A DNA stretch of 64,000 nucleotides from Nemertoderma westbladi (lineage: Eukaryota > Animalia > Xenacoelomorpha). Each line of letters starts with the position of its first letter. The first letter of the stretch is position 1. The DNA lies in contig JAUCBJ010008895.1 in the NCBI GenBank assembly GCA_032718475.1, forward strand, positions 1 to 64,000, given 5' to 3'. Below, one piece after another: positions 2,709-28,079 of the stretch. A program made the position numbers and the translations under genes. Under the pieces are notes generated by a model. The model saw nothing but the letters and a program-made list of their open reading frames with translations. It had not been told where the DNA came from and did not search any database.

Positions 2709-2861
2709 GTTTGTGTGACTTCCCCTTTTATAGTTTAGAGAAAAGTGAAATTTTATAGATCCAAACCCGCCTATTACAGTTGCCAAGTCCAACTATAACT
2801 GTTGCAAATTTAATTCCATCTCGGTAAGATCGAAGGGGAGGGGGTGGGAAGGGAACTGTGG

Positions 2862-4113
2862 TGTAAAAGCTTCTGTGGGATATAACTGGCCCCTTTGCTT
2901 CGCAATCCAGTTTCCCCCCAGGCGCTGGAATACTCTAAAAGGCTCTCTAACTATATATATATTCCCCTCGCCCGCAAGGTACCGTTATAGGTGTTTTAAC
3001 GGACATAAAAGTCATTCTTCTATATACGTGCTTTGGCGGACATGGTAAGGCAAAAAACCCGCAATGCACCAAATACCTTTACACAGCTTAGCCGTGATGA
3101 TTCAGATTACGACATCTAACAGCTGGTTGCTGACGTGGAAGCGGCCATTGGACACATGGTTCTTTGTTTAGCTTGAGCCAATCAGAGCGATTTTTTCTGT
3201 CGATGTGGAGATATTCGGCCGATCATACTAGGAGTGTTCAGTCTTACTGTTTTTCTTGATATAGTTTTGTTGTTGCTATCTAGGCCAGGAACACCGGCTC
3301 TAGAGTCAATTCGTTTTCATACTTTAGAAGAAACATTAGTAGGCTTAAGATTATAGAGCGTATAACTGTTATCAGTGCATATCACGGTCCAGTCAAACAG
3401 TGTTACCATCTTAACCTACCGTCTTAATGCTATTTACTGTTGTGTTTTGGTTGAATATTATTATTTGGAGAACATCTATAAAGAACCCAAATTTCCCAAT
3501 TTTCTTGATACACTACAGGTTAGAGAGACAGGCTACATATAGCGATTGCGACTTATATTGTTGTGGTTTGTAGTGAATTTAATGCTATTTGATAAGCCCT
3601 ACATGAGTCCGTTGCTGTTCGCTTTATATATGATAAAATTCATTGACGGTCGGCAAATTAGTGAGCAGTATTGTGTGTTACCGGTAGTGTGCATGATTGT
3701 GACTGATAACTAAGCATTTCCTAAAGAATGCGCCTCATACGTGAATCATAAGCCTTACCGACTTACCGTTGTGATTAGTATAAGTCATATCTCTGTTTAC
3801 CTAGATAGAGCGCCACGTCCTAAAGGAACTGTTAATATTTCCCGAAAGTGAATAATATTAGTCAGAAATTATTTATTAACGATCAATCGAATAATACAAT
3901 ACAGTAAGCTTACACTGCAATAATAATCTAAGCCCTCAGAATCCAGTCTCCCGGGTATATCCAGCGGGTGAATGGACGCGCACTAGGCTGGCTTCTGCTA
4001 ATGTTGTGTTTATTGGTATTAAATATTTGTCATCTTCTAAAGTCTATTTATAAACCAAAAGACATATAAATTTTGGCAGGTTAAACTGCTAAAGGTCTTC
4101 AAAAGCGCGTACA
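2862..4113 (+). repeat. 5' LTR
   Basis: TGTAAAAGC...GCGCGTACA. Direct repeat of 19096-20347 (offset 16234). Only 3 substitutions found by eye (3977, 4006, 4073). CCAAT-like boxes near 3146 and 3178. Confidence 0.97.
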
Positions 4114-4157
4114 ATAACAGTTATTGACTTTATTGCAGTAAGCAATAAAGTTGAAAG

Positions 4158-4372
4158 TACCGGTCGACCGGTAAACCTGAACCGGTACTTCTGTAGGTCA
4201 GTAGGCCCAACTGCCAGAACCGGTACTGCCGTAGGTCCAACTGCCAGAACCGGTACTTCTGTAGGTCAGTAGGCCCAACTGCCAGAACCGGTACTGCCGT
4301 AGGTCCGTAGGTCCAACTGCCAGAACCGGTACTTCTGTAGGTCCGTAGGCCCAACTGTCCTAACCGGTACTT
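4158..4372 (+). repeat. 16-bp palindrome followed by a 38/30-bp minisatellite in the retrotransposon 5' leader
   Basis: TACCGGTCGACCGGTA (4158-4173), then about 5 units like ACCGGTACTTCTGTAGGTCAGTAGGCCCAACTGCCAGA. Confidence 0.9.
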
Positions 4373-4680
4373 CCAGTATAAGTACATTAGTATTATTCGA
4401 TTTTGATTATTGCATACTGGTAGGTCTTAGTATTTAATCAGGGACTGCAGCCCAGGTTTTTTATTGAGATTTTACTTATTTCTGTCGGTTTTATTTACAT
4501 GTAAGTTAATATTGAGCTGAAGACGTGTAAGTCTGCTCAGATTGTTCAGATAATTGTAGGCCGGACTGTTGTTAGATTGTTGTTGAGATTGGAGAGATTA
4601 CGGCTTGTGTAGAGTTTGTCCGATAGAGTGCCAGTTAGTAAGTTGGGGCAGCCATAGCTGTAAGGTCAATCCCCTCTTAA

Positions 4681-6234
4681 CCCTATTAGTACCGGGCTAT
4701 AAAATGTTGTACAAATACCGGGAGGGGGTCATATTGACCCCCCCCTCTAAAATCTACAAATATTTACGAAAACGGCTGATTTTTTGTTTGTGCGTAGGTA
4801 TCACTTGTGTGGATCCGACCGAAAAAAAAAATTTTCGAAAAAATGTACTGGGGTGGTTATATTGCAGCACCAAAATTACAAGTAGTGCACAATTTACACC
4901 AAATTTGAAAGTTACATTTTCGGCTAATTATTTTTCAATACAGGTTTTCTGGGGTGCAAAATACATTGCAAAATATTAAAAAATGATATGATTACTATAA
5001 ATTGCTGTTTAGTCCTCTCTGCGTAGGAAAAAAAATTAAAAAAACAAGTAACCAGCACTTTTCAGTTAGAACACAAAATTTTTAATTCACTTATACAATG
5101 CTATAAATTCACATTTTCAGGTTTTCGAGGGCGCTGATTCTAATGGAATACATTTCTAATATGCCAGATCATTGCTACTTGTATTTTTCGGCGTAATTTG
5201 GCAAATTTTGGTGCTAGCACCAAATTCGTACCCATCACCAAAAAGTACAAGTTTGCGATGTCCAGTGCTGTTTTTATTGATTCCATCGGATTCAGGACCC
5301 TCATAAACCCGTATAACGCATGAAACAAGGTGATACTATCTACTTATTAATTTGCATATTTTCCAAAATTTGGTGCTGGCACAACAATTTTCACCCACCG
5401 GCGAAAAATACAAGTTTGAGAACTCTTATGAAATTTTTACTGATTCCATTGAATTCAGAACCATCACAAACCCGTATAACGCAAGAAACAAGGTGACACA
5501 ATCAATTGATATATTTGATGGTTTTCAAAATGTGGTGCTAGCACCACATTTTGCACCCACATCCGAAAAATACAAGTTTGGGATGTCTAGTTCGATAATT
5601 GTATTTTCCATTGAATTCAGAACAGCCATAAACCTCTAAAACGCAAGAAATAAATTGTCACAAGCAATTTTATCTATTGAACAGATTTTCAAAATTTCGT
5701 GCTAGCACCAAAATTTGCACACAGCACCGAAAAATACAAGTTTGATACGCTTGGTGCAACTCGTATATATTTCATCGAATCCAGAAACCCAAAAAACCCC
5801 AATTGCGTAAAAAACAAGTTTCAAACGATCAATTTACAAAATTGACTTATTTCAAAATTTGGTGCTGGCACCAAAATTTGGCACCCACCGAAAAAAACAA
5901 GTTTGAAATTTCTAAGTCAATTTATATGAATTCCATCAAATTTCTAACACCAAAAAACCGGTGTAAATCAAAAATAGAGATGTTACAATTAATATTTAAT
6001 GAAATGTAATTTTCAAAAAACGTCTCAAAAAAAGTGCCAAAAGTAGGGTTAAAAAATGGTGCTATAACTCGAAAAGTACCCAATATTTTTGAAAACGGTT
6101 TTCACTTCTAGGAAGACAATAGATTTTTAGGAAAAGTCATAAAATTTCAGATTCCCAACTGCGTTAGTTTCAGAATTATAATAAAAAAACCACGGGATGG
6201 GTCATATTGACCCCCCCCCCCGGGTTTAATAGGG
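4681..6234. mobile_element. Non-autonomous piggyBac-type (TTAA-specific) DNA transposon, 1554 bp, nested in the retrotransposon leader
   Basis: TTAA on both sides (4677-4680 and 6235-6238). Imperfect TIRs: CCCTATTAGTACCGGG versus the reverse complement of the right end, CCCTATTAAACCCGGG. Subterminal GGGTCATATTGACCC palindrome at both ends. An uninterrupted paralogous empty site CCCCTCTTAAAGAATAAG lies at 6517-6534. No transposase ORF. Confidence 0.92.
5190..6010. repeat. About 5 degenerate ~162-bp tandem units inside the piggyBac-type element
   Basis: Palindromic core GGTGCT(A/G)GCAC near 5210, 5372, 5534, 5699 and 5861, each followed by ...AAATACAAGTTTG...GAATTCAG...AAACCCG-like motifs. Confidence 0.85.
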
Positions 6235-7614
6235 TTAAAGAATAAGTCGTACTACCGTGTTAGAACGCATACTAACTAACCATTTTGGAATCTGCACATA
6301 CTGTAGTTTATTTAGGCTTGACAGTATTCTGCCAACGTTTTGGCCTGTGTTTGTTTGTGTGGTCTGTTCAGGTACCATAATAGTTATTACTCAGATATTT
6401 TGTAGGCTGGATTGTTGTCTAGCTATTATTAGGTCTGAAGAGATTGCTGCGTGTGTAGAGTTTGTCCGATAGAGTGCCAGTTAGTAAGTTGGGGCGGCCA
6501 TAGCTGTAAGGTCAATCCCCTCTTAAAGAATAAGTCGTACTACCGTGTTAGAACGCATACTAACTAACCATTTTGGAATCTACACATACTGTAGTTTATT
6601 TAGGCTTGGTGGTAGTCTGCCAGCGTTTGGTTTGTATTTTGTTTGAGTATTCTGTACGGGTAGCGTAATATTTATTATTCAGAGTTTATGCGATTATTCG
6701 CAACATTCATGTCCCCAAGTTTATTCCTACAGTAATTGTGTTTGTTACACATACCGTTATAGTTAAATTAACCCCGGTACTACACGGGCTGCTTGGCGTA
6801 GGAAAAGACTGGTGACTTTGTGCTTCGGTCACTCCAGCAGATGCCGTGGTTCTTTTAACTGTTCAAGTATATTTAACTACTGATTATTTGTTGTACCAGT
6901 ACTTGTACCTAATTTAGGGTTTAGTGTACAGTGCTTTCCGAGGTAATTAGTGTGTAGGCAGTATATTTGTGTTGTAAAGTGGTTAATAGGCACGCTGGAT
7001 CTGGTAGTCCGCGGTAATTAACTTCTAGGTAGGAACACTCCGTGATACATAACGTAGTACCTATAGCGATACGGTTATAGGTCGTCAGGCGGTGGTATTT
7101 TCCTATCTGGACAGTGCAATATATTTACTACTACTTATTATCTCAAATACCGTAGTACCCTGTCCGTTGTAATAACCAGAATTCTAACCCTTTGTTAGGC
7201 TGGTTTGTAGACTTCCTGTAAAATTACCCTAAAATTTCGTACGTAATATTTTTGTTGTGTTTAATTAGAGAATTAATCTCACCCGTATCGTAAGTAATTT
7301 GTAGTATTAAGTAACTTAGGTAAATTAGAATTATCTGTTTTAGTGTCCAATAAATAGCACTTCACTGAGAGCGCACAGCTTCTGTGTAGTGACTTCCCCA
7401 GAAATAATAACATTTATTTCAAATATTGACAAAACCCCTTTTAAACGGGTATATAAATATTATAAATCAACTCAAACGATTTCAAATAGTAGGCCTGCCA
7501 TACAACAACTAGGTCTCAATATCAGTTGGACTACTGCTTAAATAACGGTAATAAAGTAAGTTAAAGTAACCAAGTAACTCTAAAATATTCAGAAATTCAA
7601 TTATTCTAAAATAA

Positions 7615-7895
7615 TTGACATACCGGTATTTACCATAGGCTTATTCTATTTATTTCTATAAATTTGTGCTGAACTCATACCGGTATTCTGTGATTAATTC
7701 TAGTTCATAATTATACTTATATATACTATAAGTGTAAGCTGTATACCGGTATTCACGATAGGCCTATTATATATTTATATATATTTGTGCTAAAATTATA
7801 TACCGGTACTCTGTGACAAACCTAGTTTACAATACTTATATATACTATAAGTGTATACCGGTATTCTAATATACTGTAATAAATTACCGGTACTA
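7615..7895 (+). repeat. Degenerate ~60/120-bp repeats, each carrying TACCGGTA, just upstream of the gag ATG
   Basis: TACCGGTA at 7621, 7678, 7744, 7801, 7856 and 7886. ATTTGTGCT and ATACTTATATATACTATAAGTGTA each occur twice. Confidence 0.85.
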
Positions 7896-7972
7896 GGCCA
7901 ACGGTCATACTGAATTACTAGACTTGTTTTAACTGTAACTATAGCAGTAGACATTCAACTGTATAGCTAAAC

Positions 7973-10900
7973 ATGTCTGACACCCAGCAAAACCTATCAG
8001 ACAGTCTAATCGATACAACCATCTGTGACACAGATAGGAGTGTGGAGCGATTAAGAAAGGAGTTCAGCTCACCTCCTACTGAAAGAAAGGTCATCCCTCC
8101 AGTAGTAGTATCAGACCCTAAGCTAATCCAACACCATAGGTCTATCATCGGCACTCGGGCCCAAGTCAAACGGAACCAGGAAGCAGCTGTCCAACAGCAG
8201 CAACATCCTAGTCAAGAAACTTGTTCCCAGCGATCCGATAGCTCCAGTAGTGCGGATACTGCAGAGCTGACCCCCGAACGCGGAGTGCAGATGGCGGCTA
8301 CAGCCTACTCGGATCCCCTTCTCACCCTTCCTGCCGCAGTGCTAACTACTATATTGATTGCGGTGGAGGAACATCAAGCCGATAGAGCGAGAAGTAAGCG
8401 AGCGACCCAAGATAATTATGCGGGATACGCCAGGGAAGAATTGATGTCTATTGTCGAGTCACAATGGAACTTTCCCGGACCCGGACTCCCGTTAGATTTG
8501 TCCGAGGCTACTTGGGAGGATATATACAGGATGGGAGTGACTAAAGATACAATGGATCCAGCTGTTTGGAAGAGGTCGGCAGCAGGATATGTGCAGGGAT
8601 TCTTCGGCTCCTTGGAGCGATTAGAAGAACAACTGTTTCGACAACCCCAAGGACCTCAAGAGCAGGAAGAGCTGCTATATCAAGTACGCGAAAGAACCCT
8701 ACGCATTAGATTAATCCTATCAGCCTTTGAGGAAACTTCCAAAAGAAGACAGGACACGTCGCTGCAGGTTGCTGTCAAAACTTGGTTCCAGCGGGTAGGT
8801 CTCAAAGTACAAGAAACGGACCAGTGGAAATCCCAGCTGTCTGAGAGACTAACCTATGAAGAACCAACCGATGCCACCCTTTCTCAAGTGGAAGGCGAAG
8901 AGACCGCAGAGAGACCACGAACGAGAGACGCCATAGACATTTATCTGTCCGACTATCAGCGATTCCTAGGAGACGAAGAGTTGAGGAGACGGCTGTCTGG
9001 ACTTTCCCCTAATAGTGAAGGAACCCAGCGTGTGTCAGACTCAATCGATGCTGAAATGTTAGCTGCTAACCAAGCTGAATTTGATGAAAAACTCCGCCTC
9101 GCTAGAGTCCAAGAAGAACAAGTAAAGAAAAAGCGGATAGAGGACAAAAAGGCAGTAGCAGCGGCGAAAGCGGCAGCGGCAGTGGAAGCGGCAAAGGCAG
9201 CAGCGGCAGTGGAAGAGGCAAAGGCAGTAGCATCGGCGAAAGCTGCAGCGACAGTAGAAGCAGCCAAAGCAGCAGCAGCAATAGCATTGGGAGACGCAGA
9301 ACAGAGAGCGTCTGAAGAGACCACACAACTGGAGTTGGAAAATCTTCAAGAGACGCAAGACTGCATAAATAAACAGTTAACTGCTAGTCACATGCAGATG
9401 ATGAGAAAATCTACTCCCAAACGCCAGGGATATACGTCATCGGAGGAAAGCGAAACCACCGATCCTGAAGGCGGAGGAAATAGATCTCGTCTAAGCAGGC
9501 GTAGAAAAACATCTTACCGTCACAAATTGCCTGATTTGCCCCCAGCTGTTAGAAGACAACTAGCTAGCACAGACTTAAGTAGTATAGAACCTACAGACCA
9601 AATTATTAAGGTCAAAAGACTCCCTACTATAGTTGATGAGCCTGAAATAATTAGGCCTGTCGTTCCCAAAGTCACTCCTGTGTTAGAGACCCCTGTACTT
9701 CCAGAGCTTAACTCTAAATTCCCTTTACACAGTACTACACTGCCTGTGCCCGGTAGAACAGTCCATGAGAATATTCCTGTCCTGATAGCAGAGAGAGAAA
9801 TCAAAGATTTGTCTCCCGTCGTCCCGCGTCAGCCCGCTACAATGTTGGCGACTCCCGCTTCGGCGGTCGAGTGGGTAGAGGAGGGACGGCGGGGGATGAA
9901 TCTCCTGCTCGGACAGATGCAGGAGACTGTCCACCAACTTAAGGGAACAGTAAGGGAAGGTAGGGCCGAATTGCAAGAAGTGCAGCAAAGTATCGCGCTA
10001 GAACGCGACAAATTAGTCAATATCCAAAAAGGGATACCAATACCCCCTGTAACATTGTGTCAACCTGTTAGGTCTGAAGTATTACATGCGCAAGGTGTGG
10101 AGCCTACACGCATCTATACTGCTAGTGAAGTAGAAACTCCTATAGCAAACCCTATTAAGGGTGATTATAGACCTGTTATTAATGATATTCCCTATAGACC
10201 TGATAATGATCCGAGAAATTTATATACCGATAATTCGATATTAAATAACACGATGGCCCAAGAAAGCTTTACGCGTCAGATGGCTAGAACAGAAGCCCGC
10301 CAAGCGGTTAAAGTGGGAGAGATCGTCAAATTCAATGGAGATGAGATGAAATGGTTACCTTTCAACGAATATTACAAAGACAGCATACAGAACTCTGTGC
10401 TATCTAACGGAGAGAAACTTAGGTTCCTCATCAAGTGCTTGGAAGGACCTCCCAGGTTAATGGCGTTAAAGTTTATTGGACATCCAGAAGGATTAAGACA
10501 AGTTTGGGATACATTAAACATCAGGTATGGTAACAAAGATAACATAGCTAAGTATTTGTATGCAAAATTAGTAGCCCCCCGACACTTCCTTAGTAGCGGG
10601 ATTATAGAGTTTTCCGATGAGATTCAGGAGATCTGTAGACAATTGGACTGGTTAGGTAAGTCTCATGAATACCAGAGTTCCATGGTTATTGGAGCCGTAG
10701 TCTCTACTTTACCAAAGGGTGGAGTATGTACACGCTGGGACAAGAAAGTGTTGTACATGAATGAACAACAACGACGAAGCCCTACCATGGCTGATCTCAT
10801 GTCCTTCTTAGATGGTGAGGTAAAACTACAACTCATCAAGCAGTCCAGAGAGAAAACATCGGAAAATAAGGTAAGTGAGAAACCCGCTTCTAGGAGAAGA

Positions 10901-13900
10901 ATAACACCGGTGTGTTACACTGACGACGGCGAAAGCCAAGTTTCTCAAGAAGAGGACAGCGGGAAAGACACTGAGAGATCTTACTACGTTGACAAAACCT
11001 CAAAAGATGTAAGTAAATACAAGGCTCGAAACAACGATAGGAGAGAACAGGTTGCCAAGACCCCTCCTCAGTCTCCTAACAGAATGCACCGAAGAAAACC
11101 CGAAGAAAGAACGAGAGTGCATCAAGTTACCCCAGGTAAAGTGAGTAACATAAAACCTAACTGTGCGCTGTGCGACGGGACCCACCGTTTGAGTGCGTGT
11201 GCTGAATTTCTAAAGAAATCCCTTGTAGACAGACGTGCAGTCGTGTGGGACAAGCGGTTATGCTATAATTGCCTCAGACCAGGACACCAACGGCGAACCT
11301 GTTACTCCGACATAAAGTGTGCAAAGTGTGGCGCGAAACATCACATCTTGTTACACAGTGAGTTCGAACGAGACAATCAGAGTCAGGTAAGTGAGCCCGA
11401 ACTACATGTCCAATTCAGTGATGTAAATGACACTGATCAGGAGTCTGAGATGGAAGGGTTCTATACTGACGAATTCTCCGACGCCAACGAATCCTGTTAT
11501 CTAATCAATACCGCAGTGTATCGAGCACTTACTTATGAAAAGGACACCAACAATGAGTTTCCCCCAACTACTTTTGCCAAACAACCATCCTGGAAAGCTC
11601 CAACTTCCAACGTAGGAATCAGAGAATTTCCTGTAGTGCAGGTAAGAGTTCACGGTCCTAACCACAGTTACATAGTGAACGCACTCCTTGACTCCGGCAG
11701 CACAGGAACATTCATCGATCAAGAATTAGCCGAAGATATCTTTGCTGGACAACCCAAATTCCGGACTAAATTGAATATGTCAGGAATTATGCAGGTTTGG
11801 AAATCTACCCTAACGGCAGATTACTATGTAGGTGTGTTGTCCACCCCCCAGGATAAGTTAGGAGCACAAGGTATAAGGTCGGTAAAAATGGTGGCTATAA
11901 AGAACTTCGCTACTACTCAAGCAGACCTTTATAATTGGGACGAGGATGAGAGCATCCAACATCTTAAGATACCTCGATTCCAGACAGATTATCCTGGAGT
12001 GCAAATACTCATCGGCCAAAACGCGCACGAGGCGCTCGAAACATTAGAGAAACGGCCTGCTCAACCGCAGCCACTGCAAACCTATGCGGTAAGAACTAGA
12101 GTAGGTTGGTACTTTACTGGCCCTTCCCGCAGGACTCTCGAAGAGAGAAGGCCACCAGAACGAGTATACCAGGTGAGTGATTGGAGCGAGGAGAGCAGTG
12201 AGGTGGATGAACTAACTGAGGAAACACCATACCCTTCAGATAATGACGACATCTACCAACTCTTCGATCAAGAGAACACCATCGACCTACTTACAGAAAA
12301 CCAAACTTGGAAAAATCAGGTGAACCTATGTCAACTGATTCGCCCATCGGAACCCATCGCTTACAATGACGAACTAAACGATGAGATAGAGCGCTGCAAC
12401 GCTAGAACTCGGGACGAACTAGCCGTACGATTCTTTACTCAGGAACTGGTAGAGCCAAATTCATATGATAAGGCTCTATCGATAGAAGAAGAAAGAGCCA
12501 AGCAAATCCAGGAAACAACTACACGTTTTTTAAAGGACCAAGGTAGGTATGAAATCGGCCTACCATTTCGAAAACGAGAACCTAGATTTATAAATAACAG
12601 ACCCTTGGCAGAGAAAAGAATCGCTCAATTATATCGACGTCTTACAGCTAATGCTTCAGCGAAAGAAATGTACCAAACTCAGCTGAAGAAATTTATAACA
12701 AAGGGATACGCGGAGCGAGTACCGGAAGGAACACCAGTGACTGAGAGAACGTATTACTTAACACATCATTACGTTCCCAAACCCGGTAAACCCCATGAAG
12801 TACGAGTCGTATTCGATGGCTCTGCTCTATATATGGGCCAATCCCTCAATTCCGAGTTGTTACCAGGACCCAACTTACTCCAATCTTTGTTGGGAATACT
12901 TTTGAGATTAAGACAATATTCCATCGCGTTCGCCTCCGATATAGAAGGAATGTTCTTACAAGTCAAGGTGCTGGATAGAGATAGAGACAGCCTGAGATTT
13001 CTGTGGTGGCCTGAAGGAGACCTCAATCAGAAACCGGTAGAGTACTGGATGACCATCCAGGCTTTTGGAATCATATCAAGCCCTTCCAATGCCTGCTCCG
13101 TGGTACGAACCACTGCGAATGACAACCGAGACTCCTTCTCAAAAGAGGTGATAGACAACATCAAACGGAATATATACATGGACGACAATTTAAGGTCCCT
13201 TCCATCAGTAGAAGAAGCCATAGCTGTCGCGAAAGGAACGGTAGAGTGTTTGAAAAGAGGTGGATTTCGACTGACGAAATTCACTAGCAACTCCCGTGAG
13301 TTTCTGGAAGCCATACCGGTAGAAGACCGCGGAGCGAAAGACCTAGACTTAATAAAGGACGATCTTCCTGAAACCAAGACGCTTGGCTTGAAGTGGGACA
13401 CTGAAAGAGACATCCTGTTTTTTCAGTTAAAACAGCGAGATAATCCAGTTCGGACCAAACGGATTTGTTTAAGTATCCTGAGCACTTATTTCGACCCATT
13501 GGGATTTATTAGCCCAGTTATATTGATTGCTCGGAGTTTAGTACAACAAATGTGGCTTGAAAACCACTCATGGGACGATCCGCTTAAGGGAGAATTGTTA
13601 AAGAAATGGATGAAATGGGAAAATTCTCTACCTGCCATCGAGAACTTTATAATTTCCCGTGCATATTTTGGCCATGTTCTTCCTACGTATTCTTATCAAC
13701 TCCATGTGTTTGGAGACGCCAGCGACATGGGAATAGGTATAGTAGCATATCTGCGAGTCGAAACCCCGGATGGAATCAAAGTCGCCTTGGTTACCTCTAA
13801 GGCATTGATTAACAACAAGTTAAAGGTTCCTCGAGCGGAGTTAAAGGCGGCTTTATACGCTACAGCCATCGGCCGGAACGTAACGGAACAAATCGACTAT

Positions 13901-16060
13901 CTACTGGAGAAAACGGTTTATTGGACCGACGCTTTACTCGTGTTGGAGTATCTAACCAATGAAGTCTGTCAGTTCAGCGTTTTTGTTACTAACAGAGTAG
14001 CTATTATTCTTAGTCGCACAAAGATAGATCAATGGCGACATTGCCCTGGTACGATTAATCCAGCCGATATCGCCTCCAGGGGAGCAACTCCACAGGAACT
14101 GATAGATACTCCAGACTGGTTGGGTGGACCCGACTTCTTGAGCAAGGAAGAGGATGAATGGCCTCCTCACCTTACTACGGCGGAGATTAGACAAGCCAAG
14201 GGAGCGGAGACAGTCAAACCTAAAACCCGGGCGAGTAAATCGAAGTTATTTAAACCGACTATCGATCTATCTGTATTACATACTTCCGGGAATGATGCTT
14301 CGGACCCACAATCCCTCAACACAAATAAGTCTGTTGTGGAAATTAGAGATAGAGATTGGAAATCTGGAATACCAGACGTCTCGCAAGGAATCTCACCCAT
14401 GCTGCAGAGAGCAATGCATCATTACAGTTCCTGGAATCGGCTCTGTAAAGCCGTCACATATTTAAGACGATGTTTTCATCAACACTACTCCAGGACGAAG
14501 ACCACTAGTGATAACGCTCCATTGACATCTGCACAAGTTCATGTTATTAAAAATTTACCCAAATATAAGACATCTGACCGTTTTCTCAAGGAGAAAATTA
14601 GTCACCAGGAGCATGAAGAAACCAATAAGCAGATACTGAGACTCCTGCAATGCTATGAGGATTCCGAAAAGTATTTCCTGTTGTTGAGAAATCCGCAGAT
14701 GCGCTTAAGGGATCGATTCTCGAGCACAATGATAGATGGGCTAATACGTGTTGGAGGAAGACTCACCAATGCACCCTTATCCTTTGACACCAAATTCCCC
14801 ATACTTATTAGAAATCTTGAAGTACAAATCAAGATGATTGTAGACGTTCACAGTAAACTTTATCATGCTGGTAGAGAACGAATTCTTAGTGAAATTCGAA
14901 CTCGCTATTATTTTGATAAACCCCGTAGAGCTCTGAACCAAGTTCTTAGGAACTGCATACCCTGTAGGAAAGCATTCAGTAGGCCTTTAACACAGCGAGA
15001 GGCAGAATTACCTAGGGAACGAGTAAGCTTCTATGAACCACCTTTTACTAATACTGGTGTAGATTTATTTGGCCCTATTGAAGTATATTGTGCTAGGACT
15101 TTAGTCAAGAGATGGTGTGTCATCTTCGTGTGCATGACTTGTAGAGCCATCCATCTCGATATGGTGAACGATCTATCTACCAACAGCTTCGTCTTAAGTT
15201 TACGACGACAGATCGCTCGCTTCGGGACGAGTAATACCATGAGATCGGATAAGGGAACGAACTTCATAGGTGCCAACAACGAAATACAGGCTTACGTGAA
15301 GGACTGGAACCAAAGACAGGTGGATGACCAGCTAAGGATAACAGCGTCTAGCTGGACCTTCAACGCTGCCGACGCCCCTTGGTGGGGAGGAAGTTGGGAG
15401 AGATTAATTCGAAGTGTCAAAACCGCATTTCACTTTATAGTGCCATGCCGCGCGTATCTCACCGACGAACTTTTGCGGACGTTAATGGAGGAAATAGCTG
15501 CCTATCTCAACGAGAGACCGCTTATGCCAGTCTCATCGAGTCCCGATTCCCTGGAAGCACTAACACCTGCGCACTTCCTACTGAAGAAACCTGTAGCCAT
15601 GCTCCCACGATCGGTGATTGCCGACGGAGACGAATACTGCCGTCGAACTTGGCAACTTATGCAGTTGCTATCCCGTCATTTCGCTGACCATTTCGAGAAA
15701 CATTATCTGCCCACGCTACAACTTCGAACTAAGTGGTTTGCGCAGCAAGAAAACGTCAGCGCCGGAGATATGGTACTTATTGTAGATCCAGACCTCCCAC
15801 GTAAACGGTGGCAGACAGGTCGTATCATCGAGACCCACATCTCGGATGATGGTTTAGTACGCTCGGTAGAACTCATCGTCATGCGGCGTAACTTCAAGAA
15901 GCCAGGCATAATCTTTGAGACGCAACAACTCAATCGCCCAGTTGGTCGTTTATGTTTACTGGAAAGAGACAGAGAACTCTCCGGGAACTATGGAAGGCAA
16001 GACACTCTTCCCACGACCACCTCCCTAATTCCTCAAATATCTAGGGACTCCCCAAAGTGA
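7973..16060 (+). CDS. BEL/Pao gag-pol polyprotein, 2695 aa, uninterrupted
   Basis: DUF1759-like gag (KFNGDEMKWLPF...LSNGEKLRFLIKCLEG), BEL-type triple knuckle (CALCDGTHRLSAC, CYNCLRPGHQRRTC, CAKCGAKHHILLH), protease ALLDSGS, RT (VRVVFDGS, SDIEGMFLQV, YMDD), Pao RNase H (HVFGDAS, VPRAEL, NPADIASRG), integrase (H..H..CIPC, GVDLFGP, SDKGTNF, GGSWERLI), DUF5641-like tail (WQTGRI...DGLVRSV). Confidence 0.97.
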   Translation: MSDTQQNLSDSLIDTTICDTDRSVERLRKEFSSPPTERKVIPPVVVSDPKLIQHHRSIIGTRAQVKRNQEAAVQQQQHPSQETCSQRSDSSSSADTAELTPERGVQMAATAYSDPLLTLPAAVLTTILIAVEEHQADRARSKRATQDNYAGYAREELMSIVESQWNFPGPGLPLDLSEATWEDIYRMGVTKDTMDPAVWKRSAAGYVQGFFGSLERLEEQLFRQPQGPQEQEELLYQVRERTLRIRLILSAFEETSKRRQDTSLQVAVKTWFQRVGLKVQETDQWKSQLSERLTYEEPTDATLSQVEGEETAERPRTRDAIDIYLSDYQRFLGDEELRRRLSGLSPNSEGTQRVSDSIDAEMLAANQAEFDEKLRLARVQEEQVKKKRIEDKKAVAAAKAAAAVEAAKAAAAVEEAKAVASAKAAATVEAAKAAAAIALGDAEQRASEETTQLELENLQETQDCINKQLTASHMQMMRKSTPKRQGYTSSEESETTDPEGGGNRSRLSRRRKTSYRHKLPDLPPAVRRQLASTDLSSIEPTDQIIKVKRLPTIVDEPEIIRPVVPKVTPVLETPVLPELNSKFPLHSTTLPVPGRTVHENIPVLIAEREIKDLSPVVPRQPATMLATPASAVEWVEEGRRGMNLLLGQMQETVHQLKGTVREGRAELQEVQQSIALERDKLVNIQKGIPIPPVTLCQPVRSEVLHAQGVEPTRIYTASEVETPIANPIKGDYRPVINDIPYRPDNDPRNLYTDNSILNNTMAQESFTRQMARTEARQAVKVGEIVKFNGDEMKWLPFNEYYKDSIQNSVLSNGEKLRFLIKCLEGPPRLMALKFIGHPEGLRQVWDTLNIRYGNKDNIAKYLYAKLVAPRHFLSSGIIEFSDEIQEICRQLDWLGKSHEYQSSMVIGAVVSTLPKGGVCTRWDKKVLYMNEQQRRSPTMADLMSFLDGEVKLQLIKQSREKTSENKVSEKPASRRRITPVCYTDDGESQVSQEEDSGKDTERSYYVDKTSKDVSKYKARNNDRREQVAKTPPQSPNRMHRRKPEERTRVHQVTPGKVSNIKPNCALCDGTHRLSACAEFLKKSLVDRRAVVWDKRLCYNCLRPGHQRRTCYSDIKCAKCGAKHHILLHSEFERDNQSQVSEPELHVQFSDVNDTDQESEMEGFYTDEFSDANESCYLINTAVYRALTYEKDTNNEFPPTTFAKQPSWKAPTSNVGIREFPVVQVRVHGPNHSYIVNALLDSGSTGTFIDQELAEDIFAGQPKFRTKLNMSGIMQVWKSTLTADYYVGVLSTPQDKLGAQGIRSVKMVAIKNFATTQADLYNWDEDESIQHLKIPRFQTDYPGVQILIGQNAHEALETLEKRPAQPQPLQTYAVRTRVGWYFTGPSRRTLEERRPPERVYQVSDWSEESSEVDELTEETPYPSDNDDIYQLFDQENTIDLLTENQTWKNQVNLCQLIRPSEPIAYNDELNDEIERCNARTRDELAVRFFTQELVEPNSYDKALSIEEERAKQIQETTTRFLKDQGRYEIGLPFRKREPRFINNRPLAEKRIAQLYRRLTANASAKEMYQTQLKKFITKGYAERVPEGTPVTERTYYLTHHYVPKPGKPHEVRVVFDGSALYMGQSLNSELLPGPNLLQSLLGILLRLRQYSIAFASDIEGMFLQVKVLDRDRDSLRFLWWPEGDLNQKPVEYWMTIQAFGIISSPSNACSVVRTTANDNRDSFSKEVIDNIKRNIYMDDNLRSLPSVEEAIAVAKGTVECLKRGGFRLTKFTSNSREFLEAIPVEDRGAKDLDLIKDDLPETKTLGLKWDTERDILFFQLKQRDNPVRTKRICLSILSTYFDPLGFISPVILIARSLVQQMWLENHSWDDPLKGELLKKWMKWENSLPAIENFIISRAYFGHVLPTYSYQLHVFGDASDMGIGIVAYLRVETPDGIKVALVTSKALINNKLKVPRAELKAALYATAIGRNVTEQIDYLLEKTVYWTDALLVLEYLTNEVCQFSVFVTNRVAIILSRTKIDQWRHCPGTINPADIASRGATPQELIDTPDWLGGPDFLSKEEDEWPPHLTTAEIRQAKGAETVKPKTRASKSKLFKPTIDLSVLHTSGNDASDPQSLNTNKSVVEIRDRDWKSGIPDVSQGISPMLQRAMHHYSSWNRLCKAVTYLRRCFHQHYSRTKTTSDNAPLTSAQVHVIKNLPKYKTSDRFLKEKISHQEHEETNKQILRLLQCYEDSEKYFLLLRNPQMRLRDRFSSTMIDGLIRVGGRLTNAPLSFDTKFPILIRNLEVQIKMIVDVHSKLYHAGRERILSEIRTRYYFDKPRRALNQVLRNCIPCRKAFSRPLTQREAELPRERVSFYEPPFTNTGVDLFGPIEVYCARTLVKRWCVIFVCMTCRAIHLDMVNDLSTNSFVLSLRRQIARFGTSNTMRSDKGTNFIGANNEIQAYVKDWNQRQVDDQLRITASSWTFNAADAPWWGGSWERLIRSVKTAFHFIVPCRAYLTDELLRTLMEEIAAYLNERPLMPVSSSPDSLEALTPAHFLLKKPVAMLPRSVIADGDEYCRRTWQLMQLLSRHFADHFEKHYLPTLQLRTKWFAQQENVSAGDMVLIVDPDLPRKRWQTGRIIETHISDDGLVRSVELIVMRRNFKKPGIIFETQQLNRPVGRLCLLERDRELSGNYGRQDTLPTTTSLIPQISRDSPK

Positions 16061-17567
16061 TACGTCTGGAGTGGGTGTATGACTATATTATTTTATTTTA
16101 TTATTTTATATTATTTTATTATTTTATTATATTTTTATATGCGAACTTTATTATGTACTTTATTATAATCGTTTTTATTCAATTTTATTTAGTAGAACGT
16201 TATTTTAGTGATAATTTAGTAGATTAGTGCAATGTATTAGTGTTTATTACGTACGTAATTACTTATAATATATATTTAGTGCGACGGCGAGAAAATAATT
16301 ATTTTTCTCGTGTCTCGGCTAAACCAAGCTCTGGGTAGACCTTGGAAACGACTTGCCTCTTCACACTGACATTGCTTCATGCGATATTGCTCTTCTACCT
16401 TATATTAAATAATACATATAGTAGCGTGATGTCCCTCTAACAGTAGCGTAAAACGCAAATAAATCGGTTAAACCTTTTGACCATCTGTAATTCTAGTCGA
16501 TTAAGATATCGCGGCACCCACCGATATACTTGAAAGACAAATTCTAGAATCAGTGGTTAACGTCCCCAGACAAGTTCTGGAATAAATCGGTGCCCATCTT
16601 AAATATTAATTTAATATTTATTAAAATCTGTAAAATTCAGATCCTTTAAATTTCTAGTCAATTAAGATATCGCAGCACTTACCGATACTCTTAAAAGACA
16701 ATTTTCATAGAATTAAGGATCCTATGTCCCCAGACCTGCTCTGGAATCAAATTGTGTCAATTTTAACATCAAATAATAAAATTCACGGGAATAAATTTAA
16801 ATTCATATTTTAAATGAATTTCATAAATTGTCGTTTTGTGCAATTTATAACATTCCCAAAATTCCATTAATTAATAGATCATGGGAGCGGAGATTCATCC
16901 TATTGAGTGTATTAGAGTGCGAGAATCTCCAACATATAGTCAATAGCCGATAAAATTAATAAAATCATGCATAAAGAGGATATTGACAATTAAAGAATTA
17001 TTATTAAATAGCATCCCAGATCTGTATGCATGAGAATTACCCTAATTCTACCGCTAGCATTCCATAATGTCACCATAGCAACACCCACGCTAGAATTAGA
17101 AGCAAGTTAAGAGAACAATAGAAAGCTTGTAACCTTGCATAGCATAGAGAATACATAGCACACTGTTAGTATCCAAGGATACACAGTAATAACGTGACAT
17201 TCTGGAAGGCACTGACTAACGGACAAATGGCCTGTATGTGTGCAGTTGGTGACAGTTGTGTGGAATTTGTGCGTTTATAGGTGAATGTTACTGCTAAAGT
17301 ATGTTTACAGTAGCTAGTCGCAATTGTAAAAGTAGCCCAACTCTCCTATAGAAAGAACCTAAAGTGGATTCAAGTCTTTGGGACGGACAGTGGAGTGACT
17401 TGTGCCGGTTATCGTTGTCGTGATGTTGCTACATGTTGGCGTAAACACCGCGACGACGGTACATCGGCGCTGAGAATCCCACTGTCCGGGGCGAAGAGAG
17501 GTAGGCAGCGACGCCCGCTCGCCTAAACATAAACTCATTACAATATTAATAAACTCAGATAGCAGAT

Positions 17568-17966
17568 ATGATGGAGTTGATAGAAGATGATCTTGGTATC
17601 AGGGAGCGATATACTCTACCTTTACAAGCATTTGTGGATAGCTTGATACGCGGTGAAGCCGATCCAACCATTACGGAGGACGATGGTCGTTATATCGAAC
17701 CGCCGATGTCCCAAGAGCAACTTACGCGTGAATTGGACTATCGAAAATTCACCGCTCGCTATACGCATCGTAATAGTACGTATATGGACTTCCTAACTAC
17801 CGGCCATCCTATCGATTTACATGATACGGACGATGTAGACACCGAAAGGGAAATGGTTCTATTTAAATATCATACCCAGCGGAGTCGTAACGATAAACCG
17901 AGAATAGATCACGAAAATTCTATTCGTAACAGACTGGGAAGACGAACCAATATGTCTAGAATCTGA
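17568..17966 (+). CDS. Accessory ORF 2a of the retrotransposon (acidic, 132 aa); probably the N-terminal part of a frameshifted ORF
   Basis: ATG-initiated ORF between pol and the 3' LTR. Its end overlaps the open frame of ORF 2b, which is open from 17908. Confidence 0.55.
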   Translation: MMELIEDDLGIRERYTLPLQAFVDSLIRGEADPTITEDDGRYIEPPMSQEQLTRELDYRKFTARYTHRNSTYMDFLTTGHPIDLHDTDDVDTEREMVLFKYHTQRSRNDKPRIDHENSIRNRLGRRTNMSRI

Positions 17967-19017
17967 GGAGATTCAGCCTATCGCGCCCCGGAACAGCGAC
18001 AGCGATTACATCATAGAATGGTATCAAGGTCCACAGTGTCTCACTGCGTACGATTATCGACATGCCAACTATGTTTCTAGGCAACGTTGTCGGTTATGCG
18101 CATCGAGAGACAATGATACGCCCATGGACACAAACGTCCGCTGTTCCTATTTCCACGAACAACCGACTATGGAAATTTATTGCGCATATTGCAGACTCAA
18201 TAACTTGCATATCTTTGCGGTTTGCCCTCAATTTATGACTCAATGTCACCATTGTCAACTAAAGGGACATGCCAGTTTCGATTGCCCTTTTAATCACGAT
18301 TTGGAAAGCGTAGATGAAATGATCACACTACGTTACATCAGAGCTTGGGAAGCGAACGCTGATTTACATTGTGATTCGCGCCATCGCTATTATCCCGGAC
18401 GCGCTTACGAAGGAGTTTATGCGTTCCATCCTTATCTATTCGCTTCGGTCGAACAGAAATCACGCATATCGAGTTACGAGCTACTGAAGCGCGTCGGAGA
18501 ATGTATTTCAACCAAATTCGTACGCAAATTTCTCAGGAGTGTTAATCCTAGCGACCTTCATTCCTATAACTTAATCAATTATATCCGTCAGGATCCGGAC
18601 TATGGAGACTTGTTTGTTAACTCACACCCAGAGTTACAGGAAGTATATCGGCGGCCTTACGAATACCGAGCCCGCGAACGCGAGATGGAAAGAACCATTA
18701 AACCCCGGAGGTTTCTGACTGCCTATGGTCCACCCACGGCTCTCGTTCAGACCACTCGTAAAGGACCCGTAAGAGCGGCTGTCTTAAAACGCGCTCTCAA
18801 AGCCGTTAGACCCCTCTCCCCCAACGTTGATGTCAATCAACCCGGTACTTCGACTGGCGGATACACCGACCATAATCCTATACCCTCTGATGCAATCATA
18901 TTGCACCCTTCACCCAGGAGTTATAGCCCTCCTTGTAAAGTGGCTCGCCCCAAAGAGAAAAGGACTCTGGCTAGCTTTAAAAAACTGCGTAAACGCCGTC
19001 CGCGCAAGAAAGACTAA
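17908..19017 (+). CDS. Accessory ORF 2b of the retrotransposon: Cys/His-rich zinc-knuckle protein with a basic C-terminus
   Basis: Frame open from 17908 (first ATG 18124). Motifs CRLC, CAYCRLNNLHIFAVC and a canonical CCHC CHHCQLKGHASFDC. Ends KKLRKRRPRKKD. No evident signal peptide or transmembrane segment. Confidence 0.7.
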   Translation: MTKILFVTDWEDEPICLESEEIQPIAPRNSDSDYIIEWYQGPQCLTAYDYRHANYVSRQRCRLCASRDNDTPMDTNVRCSYFHEQPTMEIYCAYCRLNNLHIFAVCPQFMTQCHHCQLKGHASFDCPFNHDLESVDEMITLRYIRAWEANADLHCDSRHRYYPGRAYEGVYAFHPYLFASVEQKSRISSYELLKRVGECISTKFVRKFLRSVNPSDLHSYNLINYIRQDPDYGDLFVNSHPELQEVYRRPYEYRAREREMERTIKPRRFLTAYGPPTALVQTTRKGPVRAAVLKRALKAVRPLSPNVDVNQPGTSTGGYTDHNPIPSDAIILHPSPRSYSPPCKVARPKEKRTLASFKKLRKRRPRKKD

Positions 19018-19087
19018 CTGTTTAGAGTAGTTACGTATATTAAAAACTGTGATTTTGTATATTTTATAGACTCAAATCCCATTTTCT

Positions 19088-19095
19088 GGGAGCGG
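19088..19095 (+). promoter_or_regulatory. Polypurine tract (plus-strand primer)
   Basis: GGGAGCGG immediately 5' of the 3' LTR TG. Confidence 0.7.
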
Positions 19096-20347
19096 TGTAA
19101 AAGCTTCTGTGGGATATAACTGGCCCCTTTGCTTCGCAATCCAGTTTCCCCCCAGGCGCTGGAATACTCTAAAAGGCTCTCTAACTATATATATATTCCC
19201 CTCGCCCGCAAGGTACCGTTATAGGTGTTTTAACGGACATAAAAGTCATTCTTCTATATACGTGCTTTGGCGGACATGGTAAGGCAAAAAACCCGCAATG
19301 CACCAAATACCTTTACACAGCTTAGCCGTGATGATTCAGATTACGACATCTAACAGCTGGTTGCTGACGTGGAAGCGGCCATTGGACACATGGTTCTTTG
19401 TTTAGCTTGAGCCAATCAGAGCGATTTTTTCTGTCGATGTGGAGATATTCGGCCGATCATACTAGGAGTGTTCAGTCTTACTGTTTTTCTTGATATAGTT
19501 TTGTTGTTGCTATCTAGGCCAGGAACACCGGCTCTAGAGTCAATTCGTTTTCATACTTTAGAAGAAACATTAGTAGGCTTAAGATTATAGAGCGTATAAC
19601 TGTTATCAGTGCATATCACGGTCCAGTCAAACAGTGTTACCATCTTAACCTACCGTCTTAATGCTATTTACTGTTGTGTTTTGGTTGAATATTATTATTT
19701 GGAGAACATCTATAAAGAACCCAAATTTCCCAATTTTCTTGATACACTACAGGTTAGAGAGACAGGCTACATATAGCGATTGCGACTTATATTGTTGTGG
19801 TTTGTAGTGAATTTAATGCTATTTGATAAGCCCTACATGAGTCCGTTGCTGTTCGCTTTATATATGATAAAATTCATTGACGGTCGGCAAATTAGTGAGC
19901 AGTATTGTGTGTTACCGGTAGTGTGCATGATTGTGACTGATAACTAAGCATTTCCTAAAGAATGCGCCTCATACGTGAATCATAAGCCTTACCGACTTAC
20001 CGTTGTGATTAGTATAAGTCATATCTCTGTTTACCTAGATAGAGCGCCACGTCCTAAAGGAACTGTTAATATTTCCCGAAAGTGAATAATATTAGTCAGA
20101 AATTATTTATTAACGATCAATCGAATAATACAATACAGTAAGCTTACACTGCAATAATAATCTAAGCCCTCAGAATCCAGTCTCCCGGGTATATCCAGCG
20201 GGTGAATGGATGCGCACTAGGCTGGCTTCTGCTAATGTTTTGTTTATTGGTATTAAATATTTGTCATCTTCTAAAGTCTATTTATAAACCAAAAGACATA
20301 TAAATTGTGGCAGGTTAAACTGCTAAAGGTCTTCAAAAGCGCGTACA
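19096..20347 (+). repeat. 3' LTR
   Basis: 1252-bp copy of 2862-4113, followed by the TSD TGTGG. Confidence 0.97.
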
Positions 20348-20910
20348 TGTGGGCAGCTTATTATTGAATTATAATTATTCAATACATCTATAGATAGTTT
20401 AGCCTATAATGGAAAAACTATTTTTTAGATTAGCTTTTTTTCACTTAAATTTGGAAAACACAGTCCAATAAAGTATTGCTTTTCAGCTCACTGCTGTTAA
20501 TTTCTTTCATTATTTTAGTGATGGAAACATTTTATTTATTTCCTTATATCCTTATTATCCGTATTATTTCCTTCACAATTTTTGTGAAGAATAATAGGTC
20601 TAGGCCTACACTATCCTTGAAGTAAATATTTTAGTAAGACAAGAGACCCGCATAAATATATGGTGTCTTCTACGTGCTAGCTATTTATATATACGCCCAA
20701 TAGTTTATTGTAGTACGCTAATAATTAATTTGATTGATATTATTTGAATATTAAGTTAAATTTTCATATAAAATACCGGTTTTACATTCGATAAAACAAC
20801 ATGGCGGGTATGATTTTTTCATTTTGACCGAATATTAATAATATGTACTGTAGATGTAAACAAGCAAAATTTAAAGGTTCAACTAATTAAAATTCAACAT
20901 TATAATACAG

Positions 20911-25315: not shown

Positions 25316-25769
25316 TTAGGAGGAGATAGAGGAACAAACAAACATACATATATATATACTGTACATACATATACTATACTATACTATATATATGTATTTA
25401 TACTATACTATATATATATTGAGCTTTAGGTTAATACTGGTTAATACCATGACTGTTTAACGAAGGCTAATACCATCGTAAATAATCAATCGTAACCCTA
25501 CGTTGTATCTACTTAGCTATAGTTATAATATTAAGCTGTAGCTATAGTATAGCTTAATCTATCAATCTGAATCTACACAGTTATACTGTAGGTTTTTCAT
25601 TTTGTACTCGTACTACTGGGAGTTAGTTTTAAAGTGAAAGTAATTAAGTGATTTCAGATTCCTGAAATCACCGCTATTCTTTACAAAACTAAACAACTTT
25701 TATATTAATTATAATGAGAGATGGCTTAACATTTTTTAATATTATTATATCTTTTTTTCACAATTCTAG

Positions 25770-27520
25770 GGCTCAATATACCAAACTACGGAGGTATTTA
25801 CAACGGGGACTACCGTTCCAACGACTTCTGGGATCGACAGCGTATCCAGGACAACCCAGACGACTATTGGCAATCCTTGAGCGTCGCCCTGAGCAACAGT
25901 CAGACCATAACGGCCGAGTGTCTGTTCCTGCTAGACCCGACTCGGAGAAACTCGCAAATTCGCGGGCAGAAACAATACGAACTCAATGTGATCACCATAT
26001 CGGACCAGGAAGATGAAGAGAGTTTACACTCGTTCTGCGAGCAGCCGATGAGTTCCTTCCATAGCGGAGTGTTTGCGACGCGCGCTCACGCAGAAGCTTA
26101 TCTAGCTACATTCGTCGAACGCGATTCCGTAGTCGACAAAGATATGCCTTACATCGGGATGCAGCCGCGGTTTAAATACGCGTTGAATAAAAACGAGAGA
26201 ATCCCGCAACCCGCGCCGGTGTTCGATGATTTAGTTCGAGCCCGGGTTGAGCTGGAAGAGCCGATGGATCCGTCGGAGTTCGCGCGGAGGGATTCGCGAA
26301 CTCGGAATTCGGGCGGAGAGGAAGAAATCGATGATCAAGGGGCCGGAGATCGGTTGGCGAGTCGGTTGCCAAGTGACGCACCCCGTAGGCTAACGCGAAT
26401 CGGGGATAAGCGAATGAGTGGCGTCGAGAAACGTCAAAGTGGCATCGAGAAACGGCAAAGTCAGTTGGATAAGCGGCAGAGCGCGATGGAGGGCGGAAAA
26501 TCGCTGCCGAGAACTTCAGATGACGCAGTTCTTCCAATGCTTCCTCGGAGCGACGTTCCGATGGAAGGTGAAGAACGTCGGCAGTCGAAAACCCTTCAAC
26601 GAAAACCGCCGAATAAACAGGAAATAAAAGTGAACAGAGTTGTTCCTGGGAAGCAGAGAAAGAAAGTTATGCACGGAGGCTTCACTTACACATCGGAGGA
26701 ATGGAAGGATGGAATATACCCTGACTCTAAGACCATAAAAGGCTCCTTCCAGAAGTACCTAGAAAGTGATGTCTGTGGGGCGATCCCTGGTTTTGATAGG
26801 CTAGATCACATTGAGAGTGAAATTCTTCTATACCTAATGGATAGACCATCTTTAGGCAGCGATTTGGGTCTCCAATTCTACTCTTACATGAGAAGTTCGG
26901 CGTGGCGATTTTTCCGTATTATGAAAATGAATTTGACTGTTCAGGAATTGATATACGTGAACTTGGATGAGTCATCTTGTGTTCCCGCGGATTCAGTATT
27001 CTTTGAATATGAAACTCAATTAATGAATTATTTTGGTGGGGATAACGGATTCAGCGATTTGGTTACAATGCGGGGATACATTGTTCGGGAATTAGCGAGT
27101 GTTGTTGATAAAACCTCGTCTGATAACAAATCAATAACATTATCCGAAGCAACAATATCTACGTTAATTCGAGTCAACAGTTACTGTGAATGTCATCTAG
27201 TATATCTAATGGATGCTTCAGAAGAAGCCTTCCAATTGGTTAAATCATTTAGGAATCAGATTCTAGAACGCGGGGACAACTTGCCCCGTCCGGTCACCCC
27301 GACCTGGAGGTTTTCTCGCAGTGGTAGAAAACCACCCAAAGGAAAAGGTAAAAAGATTTCTACGTTTCTATATAAACATGGCAATGAAGATCAGAAGATC
27401 ATGGATCACGATTACTTGTTTGTTAATGTTAATCAAGCCATGGAGAAGTCAACAGCCCCTAAAGTAATGTTGCATGATAATGTTCTTATGCAGTATTGCA
27501 TCGATACACACATTGATCAG
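25770..27520 (+). CDS. Host gene exon 6 (large exon: end of module 1, KRQS-repeat linker, helical region, start of module 2)
   Basis: Acceptor ttttttcacaattctag|, phase 1 in, in frame with the 550-aa ORF at 25877, donor CAG|GTTTGT. Confidence 0.85.
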
Positions 27521-28079
27521 GTTTGTTGACCCTTTTTATCTCTTCATTTTTTTCTCTTCTCTTCACCGAATGAGCTACCAAAGATAAATCACAGCAACAA
27601 CAAGCAGCAACAACACAGCAACTTTCTAAGTTCTCCACTCTAACCATATTCTGACAGCTGTAGACGCAAATGGTGTACCCGTGTTGACACAAATAGTCAA
27701 CAAAAATCATTAAATCATATTGTAAGCGTATCGTTAAAGTGTATCGTAAACAATAGCAAAAAAATAATTTTTAATTATAATTGTCGCCTAATTAGTATTT
27801 TCCTTCGTATCGGGAGCTTGATGAATCCACAACTCTCCTCTGGGGAGTATAACTTTGGGGTACCTTGTATCAGACTATAGATATATTATATCTATAAGAA
27901 ACAAAAATATACAATAATATTTTACTACTGTACGAAATATCCAACTACAGAACATTTAGCAAGGAAATAAAATAAACCTGAAAATTATTGTTATTTTATA
28001 TACAATATATCTTATATTGTGTCAATTTTACATATTATTCATATTTATGACGATGGCTATTGATTTATACTCATTTAAG

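Follow-up and report, generated by a model that had tools for sequence, protein, structure and literature searches.

How is reverse transcription primed in a BEL/Pao retrotransposon whose 5' LTR is not followed by the TGG of a tRNA primer-binding site (PBS)? The element in question occupies positions 2862-20347 of the window, by which we mean the whole stretch of 64,000 nucleotides analysed here, and is a young LTR retrotransposon of 17,486 bp, or about 15.9 kb minus a nested insert. A preliminary description of this DNA had proposed that it may prime itself, as Tf1 does, through an exact complement of the primer-binding position lying inside the LTR. We consider, with a probability of roughly 0.55, that the element primes in a Tf1-like manner with the first 11 bases of its own RNA, starting at about 3362, and we regard self-priming of any geometry as likely. 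The proposal gains support from chance controls, from the pattern among sibling copies and from relatives that lack a TGG and carry 11-base self-complements in other letters, while helices corresponding to the additional duplexes of Tf1 were no longer than in shuffled sequence.

The element and its primer-binding position

Judged by its proteins, the element is a member of the BEL/Pao superfamily, because its gag-pol frame matches DUF1759, Peptidase_A17 and DUF5641 above the Pfam cut-offs (Integrase_H2C2 also matched) and shows motifs in the order CCHC, protease (PR), reverse transcriptase (RT), RNase H (RH) and integrase (IN). The features that define BEL/Pao, namely the PR-RT-RH-IN order, TG..CA LTRs, a target duplication and a purine tract, were all found. 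PF05380 is present in all 120 homologs listed, the best of which share 37-44% identity with it across the RT-RNase H region; named homologs come from echinoderms, cnidarians, molluscs, hemichordates, a ribbon worm and fish, and the window element is placed on a long branch. The main parts of the element are as follows.

2857..2861, no strand: left target-site duplication, TGTGG, read from the sequence; in sequencing runs X1 and X3 the match of the flank contig ends at 2861
2862..4113, + strand: 5' LTR, 1252 bp, TGT...ACA, 3 mismatches to the 3' LTR
4681..6234, no strand: TTAA-flanked element nested in a repeat unit of the leader, with inverted ends (CCCTATT...) and internal repeats of 162 bp; the second of these leader units gives the empty site
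7967..16060, + strand: single uninterrupted gag-pol open reading frame, 2697 aa stop to stop, ATG at 7973
17908..19017, + strand: extra open reading frame of 369 aa with zinc-knuckle-like Cys/His motifs, before the 3' LTR
19088..19095, + strand: purine-rich tract before the 3' LTR, read from the sequence
19096..20347, + strand: 3' LTR, 1252 bp, read from the sequence, with a second copy of the 11-mer at 19596-19606
20348..20352, no strand: right target-site duplication, TGTGG, read from the sequence

The leader between the 5' LTR and gag-pol is 3.9 kb long and holds a 38-bp array and the nested 1.55-kb element, which we take to be piggyBac-like from its TTAA target. The array (4179-4373, 5.3 copies, ACCGGT-rich) lies just 3' of the hairpin that follows the PBS, and its length varies in siblings. 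The 369-aa frame had no Pfam match, and its protein-atlas matches to zf-CCHC clusters, all below 0.9, are a lead only. In runs X1 and X3, contigs that match the left flank (2500-2861) end exactly at the target duplication, like an empty allele, which suggests that the insertion is polymorphic.

The region that concerns priming contains the following features, all on the + strand.

3147..3243: ATTGG (3147), CCAAT (3178) and TCAGTC (3238), which may be promoter elements and an alternative start site, by motif match only
3362..3372: candidate self-primer, exact complement of 4114-4124, from the sequence and from shuffle and decoy controls; no sibling variant of at least 2%
3516..3522: CAG then GTTA, a possible relic acceptor or donor, with a second at 4077-4083 (post hoc)
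4018..4023: ATTAAA, the sole AATAAA/ATTAAA in the LTR, a candidate poly(A) signal by motif only
4114..4124: primer-binding position, ATAACAGTTAT, without TGG, from the sequence; the LTR-PBS junction is bridged by X4 record 22
4126..4152: stable hairpin directly 3' of the PBS, from a fold model; its loop contains the start of a donor-like GTAAGC (4138)

The sequence ATAACAGTTAT occurs once in the window, directly 3' of the 5' LTR, and the first TGG 3' of that LTR stands at 4418. Its complement is found once in the 5' LTR, at 3362-3372, and again in the 3' LTR at 19596; both the missing TGG and the exact 11-nt complement had been noted in the preliminary description, and both hold. The match begins at the first base past the LTR and is extendable at neither end. 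Its polarity fits priming, with the 3' base of the 3362-3372 primer facing the first base past the LTR, and about 740 bases lie between candidate primer and PBS. At least 11 bases were reached by 30 of 20,000 dinucleotide shuffles of the LTR, and decoy sites drawn from the element's own leader did as well in 4 of 600 cases, so that a chance match is expected at 0.002-0.007 per element. The 11-base self-complement is real and beyond chance.

ARAGORN found no tRNA gene in the 64-kb window or in 10 loci of relatives, and these sequence searches thus give no sign of a self-encoded tRNA primer. Rfam gave no match within the element and a single sub-threshold match outside it. Scans of viral contigs yielded no relative, and a scan of metagenomes for the pattern returned one locus on a bacterial contig, which we judged a chance match.

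In the proposed mechanism, the transcript would start at or just before 3362 and its first 11 bases would pair with the PBS at 4114-4124. The primer end would come from cleavage after 3372, for which the element's own RNase H is the probable enzyme, as it is in Tf1, and extension would proceed into U5. Plus-strand synthesis would then regenerate the PBS from the primer, by which both sites would stay exactly complementary. On this reading, the RNA should carry its cap near 3362, and the template should end at 3373.

Folding models were used to evaluate the pairing. The hairpin at 4127-4151 formed as previously proposed, with pair probabilities of 0.89-1.0; the small hairpin over the PBS, also proposed, does form but is weak (-1.5 kcal/mol). 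An RNA starting at 3362 is predicted to fold with the primer-PBS helix (central pair probability 0.67-1.0). With the interior shuffled, the same helix still reached a probability of at least 0.73 in all 29 controls, and since this control matches the native RNA, folding was dropped as independent evidence for self-priming. Tf1-type flanking duplexes measured 7 and 8 bp, lengths not above those of shuffles (P 0.89 and 0.41); for the downstream arm the duplex energy gave P 0.03, yet this arm folds into its own hairpin.

Sibling copies and distant relatives

Sibling copies were compared through the contigs of sequencing runs; seven runs are listed, six contain the stretch and none is recorded as RNA. 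The family is highly repeated: the flank corresponds to one contig with a depth of 24.5 in X1, while the bins of LTR and leader sum to between 85,000 and 1.39 million, summed contig depths that are not copy numbers. A narrow alignment of 3318-3432 contained 253, 177, 108 and 2 contigs in X1, X2, X3 and X5, that is, four runs and three samples. Substitutions reaching at least 2% numbered 3 and indels 11, with none at 3359-3378, although variants near the edge of the conserved block may be clipped and hidden. This block consists of the 11-mer plus 44 bases upstream and ends one base past the 11-mer. Right after 3373 the depth collapses in all four runs, and in X1 the sum falls from 93,295 (3370-73) to 37,310 (3374-77) and 5,916 (3382-85). 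Among 26 listed records, 15 end at 3373-3376, 1 at 3371, 4 at 3379-3385 and 6 past 3410; the loose ends past 3373 are unlike one another (18 of 35 listed). One further feature is thereby defined.

3374..3492, + strand: stretch of sharp sibling divergence, from 1-4 bases past the 11-mer, seen in the depth fall and record ends, with loose ends before 3492-3493

A variable zone beginning at the 5' end of the template would be expected under a cut after base 11, and equally under a start near 3374. The conserved block is also what one expects of a promoter, and its edge also fits a start at TCA 3372-3374. Dead-end products were not evident among the 18 of 35 loose ends listed at the 11-mer, nor among the 15 of 20 joints and 24 of 526 loose ends listed in the wide comparison.

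We then asked whether the LTR-PBS junction belongs to this copy only, as the preliminary description had allowed by envisaging a deletion here and a TGG in siblings. The bin 3' of the PBS (4128-4201) matches the LTR in depth, and X4 record 22, a diverged contig with 6 other letters and 6 gaps, spans 4073-4174 across the junction. Because of this depth and this bridging contig, a junction without TGG that is private to this copy is largely excluded.

A profile search of genome contigs provided 16 loci of relatives, BEL/Pao contigs inside MAG records. Their RT is 36-45% identical to that of the window element; they are not its close kin, given its long branch, and inform on the wider group rather than on its own family. 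The LTR and the adjoining interior were readable in 8 loci (L002, L003, L004, L005, L006, L008, L011 and L015). Left out of the count were L007, L009, L013, L014, L016 and L017, with unreadable LTRs, L012, with an incomplete LTR (best 4 bases), and L010, where the LTR end was not fixed. TGG was found within the first 12 bases past the LTR in none of the eight readable loci. In six of them, which lie in bacterial MAG records and are evidently host contamination there, an exact 11-base complement of the PBS is obtained across a GT..AG intron of the LTR, once the intron is removed:

L002:1-640
L003:5880-6396
L004:1000-1790
L005:1000-1880
L008:13420-14193
L011:1562-3220

Each of the six split complements was equalled by 0-1 of 600 decoys. 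They represent five different sequences from four assemblies, L002 and L008 sharing one sequence and L004, L005 and L011 one assembly. L002, L003 and L008 were first spotted by eye, L003 matched only with an offset of 5 and a donor reading GTATG, and the LTR end of L011 was picked from two options. The donors read GTRAGT or GTATGT. Complementarity is therefore conserved, a point on which the preliminary description had left room for the opposite, since it is exact in 6 of 8 relatives and the 11-mer is invariant among siblings. Compensatory change, also raised there, is seen between L004 and L005, which differ at two exon bases and at both matching PBS bases; such mirrored changes are known from relatives and not from siblings, whose wide comparison has 40 of 263 variants listed.

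In the two remaining readable loci, L006 showed 10 of 11 bases by eye, where the script found 8 at best (P 0.02-0.06), and L015 was counted as a miss: its seeming ATAAC start of the PBS was dismissed, as the LTR end is degenerate and no complement was found. For L010, the best of 39 trial LTR ends gives 11 bases. This locus also holds a tRNA-like site beginning with TGG at 4672-4700, about 265 bases past the apparent LTR start, which is either a genuine tRNA PBS or an insertion derived from a tRNA.

The sequences of the relatives suggest that they make the 11-mer by splicing out an intron of the LTR; the family of the window element carries it unspliced. A bolder scenario, which we hold to be doubtful, is that a broad BEL/Pao branch replaced tRNA priming with a self-primer of 11 bases, usually pieced together by host splicing, and that the window family took the next step, with a finished primer at the old donor position, the former intron as a hypervariable stretch, and priming independent of splicing.

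Alternative starts and alternative primers

The alternative that survives best is self-priming with another geometry, which we consider unlikely and still the foremost competitor of the Tf1-like reading. Here the RNA would start upstream, for instance at the TCAGTC at 3238, and the primer would be longer or cut twice; or the RNA would start near 3374 and the 11-mer of the 3' LTR would prime another RNA. CCAAT-like boxes upstream of the 11-mer had been reported in the preliminary description and are present (CCAAT 3178, ATTGG 3147); the TCAGTC at 3238, which it had not mentioned, lies about 60 bases past the CCAAT. The TCAGT it had placed next to the 11-mer does exist at 3372-3376, abutting the conservation edge, but it is not kept by all siblings and argues against a start at 3362 rather than for it: it shares only its first base with the last base of the 11-mer, and an RNA that began there would lack the 11-mer at its 5' end. 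The first exons of L004, L005 and L011 are only 3 bases long, a hint that transcription may begin elsewhere than at the paired 11-mer, and alternative starts occur in Tf2, according to the available part of one account (PMC5341516). On the other side, a second cut or a stop would be needed to hold the PBS at exactly 11 bases, and upstream starts are predicted to hide the 11-mer, the probability of the primer-PBS helix falling to 0.07 or less when the modelled RNA starts at 3240, 3284 or 3340. A plain poly(A)-end primer is ruled out, as no AATAAA/ATTAAA precedes 3372.

Less probable again, and in our view distinctly unlikely, is that both 11-mers are copies of a palindromic site for an OVO-type factor, and that the primer is a small RNA of the host, for example a tRNA half. 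The core CTGTTA of the 11-mer presumably resembles the anticodon loop of tRNA-Asn, which would suit a host RNA. AACNGT is over-represented in the LTR (9 seen against 2.5 expected, P 0.0015), and TAACNGT, present in both 11-mers, is the OVO motif, enriched near start sites in the excerpt available of PMC11410370; some copia elements are primed by tRNA halves, as stated in the accessible text of PMC6317226. Given the motif sites, however, a full 11-base complement has a chance of roughly 0.006-0.03, the long palindrome shared by the 11-mers is found only at these two places in the 5' LTR, interior and flanks, and the 11-base pairing of the relatives uses letters that do not form the OVO motif.

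We attach very little weight to a primer built by splicing as in the relatives, through an intron from GT 3368 to 3518 or 4079 that would leave a 10-base complement. This GT occupies the 6+5 position, as do the donors of L002, L003, L006 and L008, two CAG-GTTA sites lie downstream of it (P 0.0055 for two or more, post hoc), and the variable stretch falls between 3368 and 3518. It agrees with the donor consensus at 4 of 9 positions, however, against GTRAGT/GTATGT in the relatives, both CAG-GTTA sites also score as donors, and splicing would give 10 pairs where the unspliced RNA has 11. A search of the window LTR over 141 GT/GC donors and 75 acceptors likewise reached 10 bases at best, and the contiguous 11-mer stayed unbeaten. 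Upstream of the 11-mer, a donor-like GTAAGG at 3045-3050 and pyrimidine-rich acceptor-like sites at 3264-3284 make an LTR intron possible if transcription began further upstream.

Finally, a chance match combined with loss of a normal tRNA site from this copy alone is just as improbable. In its favour are the AT-rich and almost palindromic letters of the 11-mer, the many elements that any genome scan goes through and the nested insertion in this copy's leader, but the per-element chance calculated above, the junction shared with siblings and the TGG-less relatives all speak against it.

Comparison with known self-priming elements

Self-priming with 11 bases is described for Tf1 in the sections available of PMC7175516, PMC4600332, PMC5341516 and PMC11042837. 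As far as these partial texts go, Tf1/Tf2/Tj1 and the Tf1/sushi group resemble the window element in having an 11-base LTR stretch complementary to an LTR-adjacent PBS and no tRNA site. The Tf1 PBS begins with ATAAC in the available extract of PMC11042837, as does that of the window element, a likeness noticed post hoc. Tf1/sushi elements are Ty3/gypsy chromoviruses, whereas the window element has BEL/Pao proteins and no chromodomain family among its Pfam matches. Tf1 is further described, in the part seen of bioRxiv 10.1101/2022.12.06.519325, as forming a three-duplex "pretzel", for which the corresponding helices of the window element do not exceed shuffles by length. In the window element, start and cleavage are predicted from sequence, and primer and PBS stand about 740 bases apart.

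The Belpaoviridae profile (PMC8742986) describes BEL/Pao replication as tRNA-primed, with an 18-nt PBS for the 3' end of tRNA-Arg or tRNA-Gly and a genome of 4.2-10 kb. The window element shares with Belpaoviridae/Semotivirus a PR-RT-RH-IN gag-pol, LTRs, a purine tract and animal relatives, but has no such tRNA-Arg/Gly PBS and measures 17.5 kb. Most likely, it works like Tf1, yet it stands outside Tf1/sushi and does not fit the way the ICTV describes its own family.

For plant elements, self-priming has been predicted from a 10-base LTR complement situated 0-5 bp from the LTR, according to the accessible portion of PMC6317226, and the window PBS has such a complement at such a distance. Tcn1 (gypsy) and TAR (copia) offer, in that portion, the same type of evidence (a complement of at least 10 bases at the PBS) in other superfamilies and in plant hosts, and there too self-priming is predicted. 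Taken together, the parts available of PMC7175516 and PMC6317226 present self-priming as demonstrated in the case of Tf1, with predictions for its chromovirus relatives and for a single lineage of copia. We found no publication on self-priming in BEL/Pao, including in the accessible text of PMC3601003, PMC2864245, PMC8220671 and PMC5445492, with subscription journals, Repbase, GyDB and supplements outside the scope of the search; a term search of the available text of PMC554778 and PMC3118150 gave no mention of a PBS. A link to priming in the Oikopleura Tor elements was unsupported by term search in the text available of PMC4402516.

If the Tf1-like reading is true, self-priming would have been reached by all three retrotransposon superfamilies, and the same 11-base length in the window element, its relatives and Tf1 would point to a shared RT/RNase H constraint. 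Such elements would escape control by tRNA 3' fragments and would go unnoticed by annotation software for which a tRNA site is obligatory. The split primer of the relatives, if true, would tie retrotransposon replication to host splicing.

Outside the element, the window contains a frame at 1630-2115 that carries short SLTPG repeats. Two frames of 599 aa (25730-27529) and 210 aa (28690-29322), which had no Pfam matches, are probably host-gene exons, and the rest of the window (30109-64000) is occupied by a 43-bp satellite array of about 91% identity with a 388-bp higher period.
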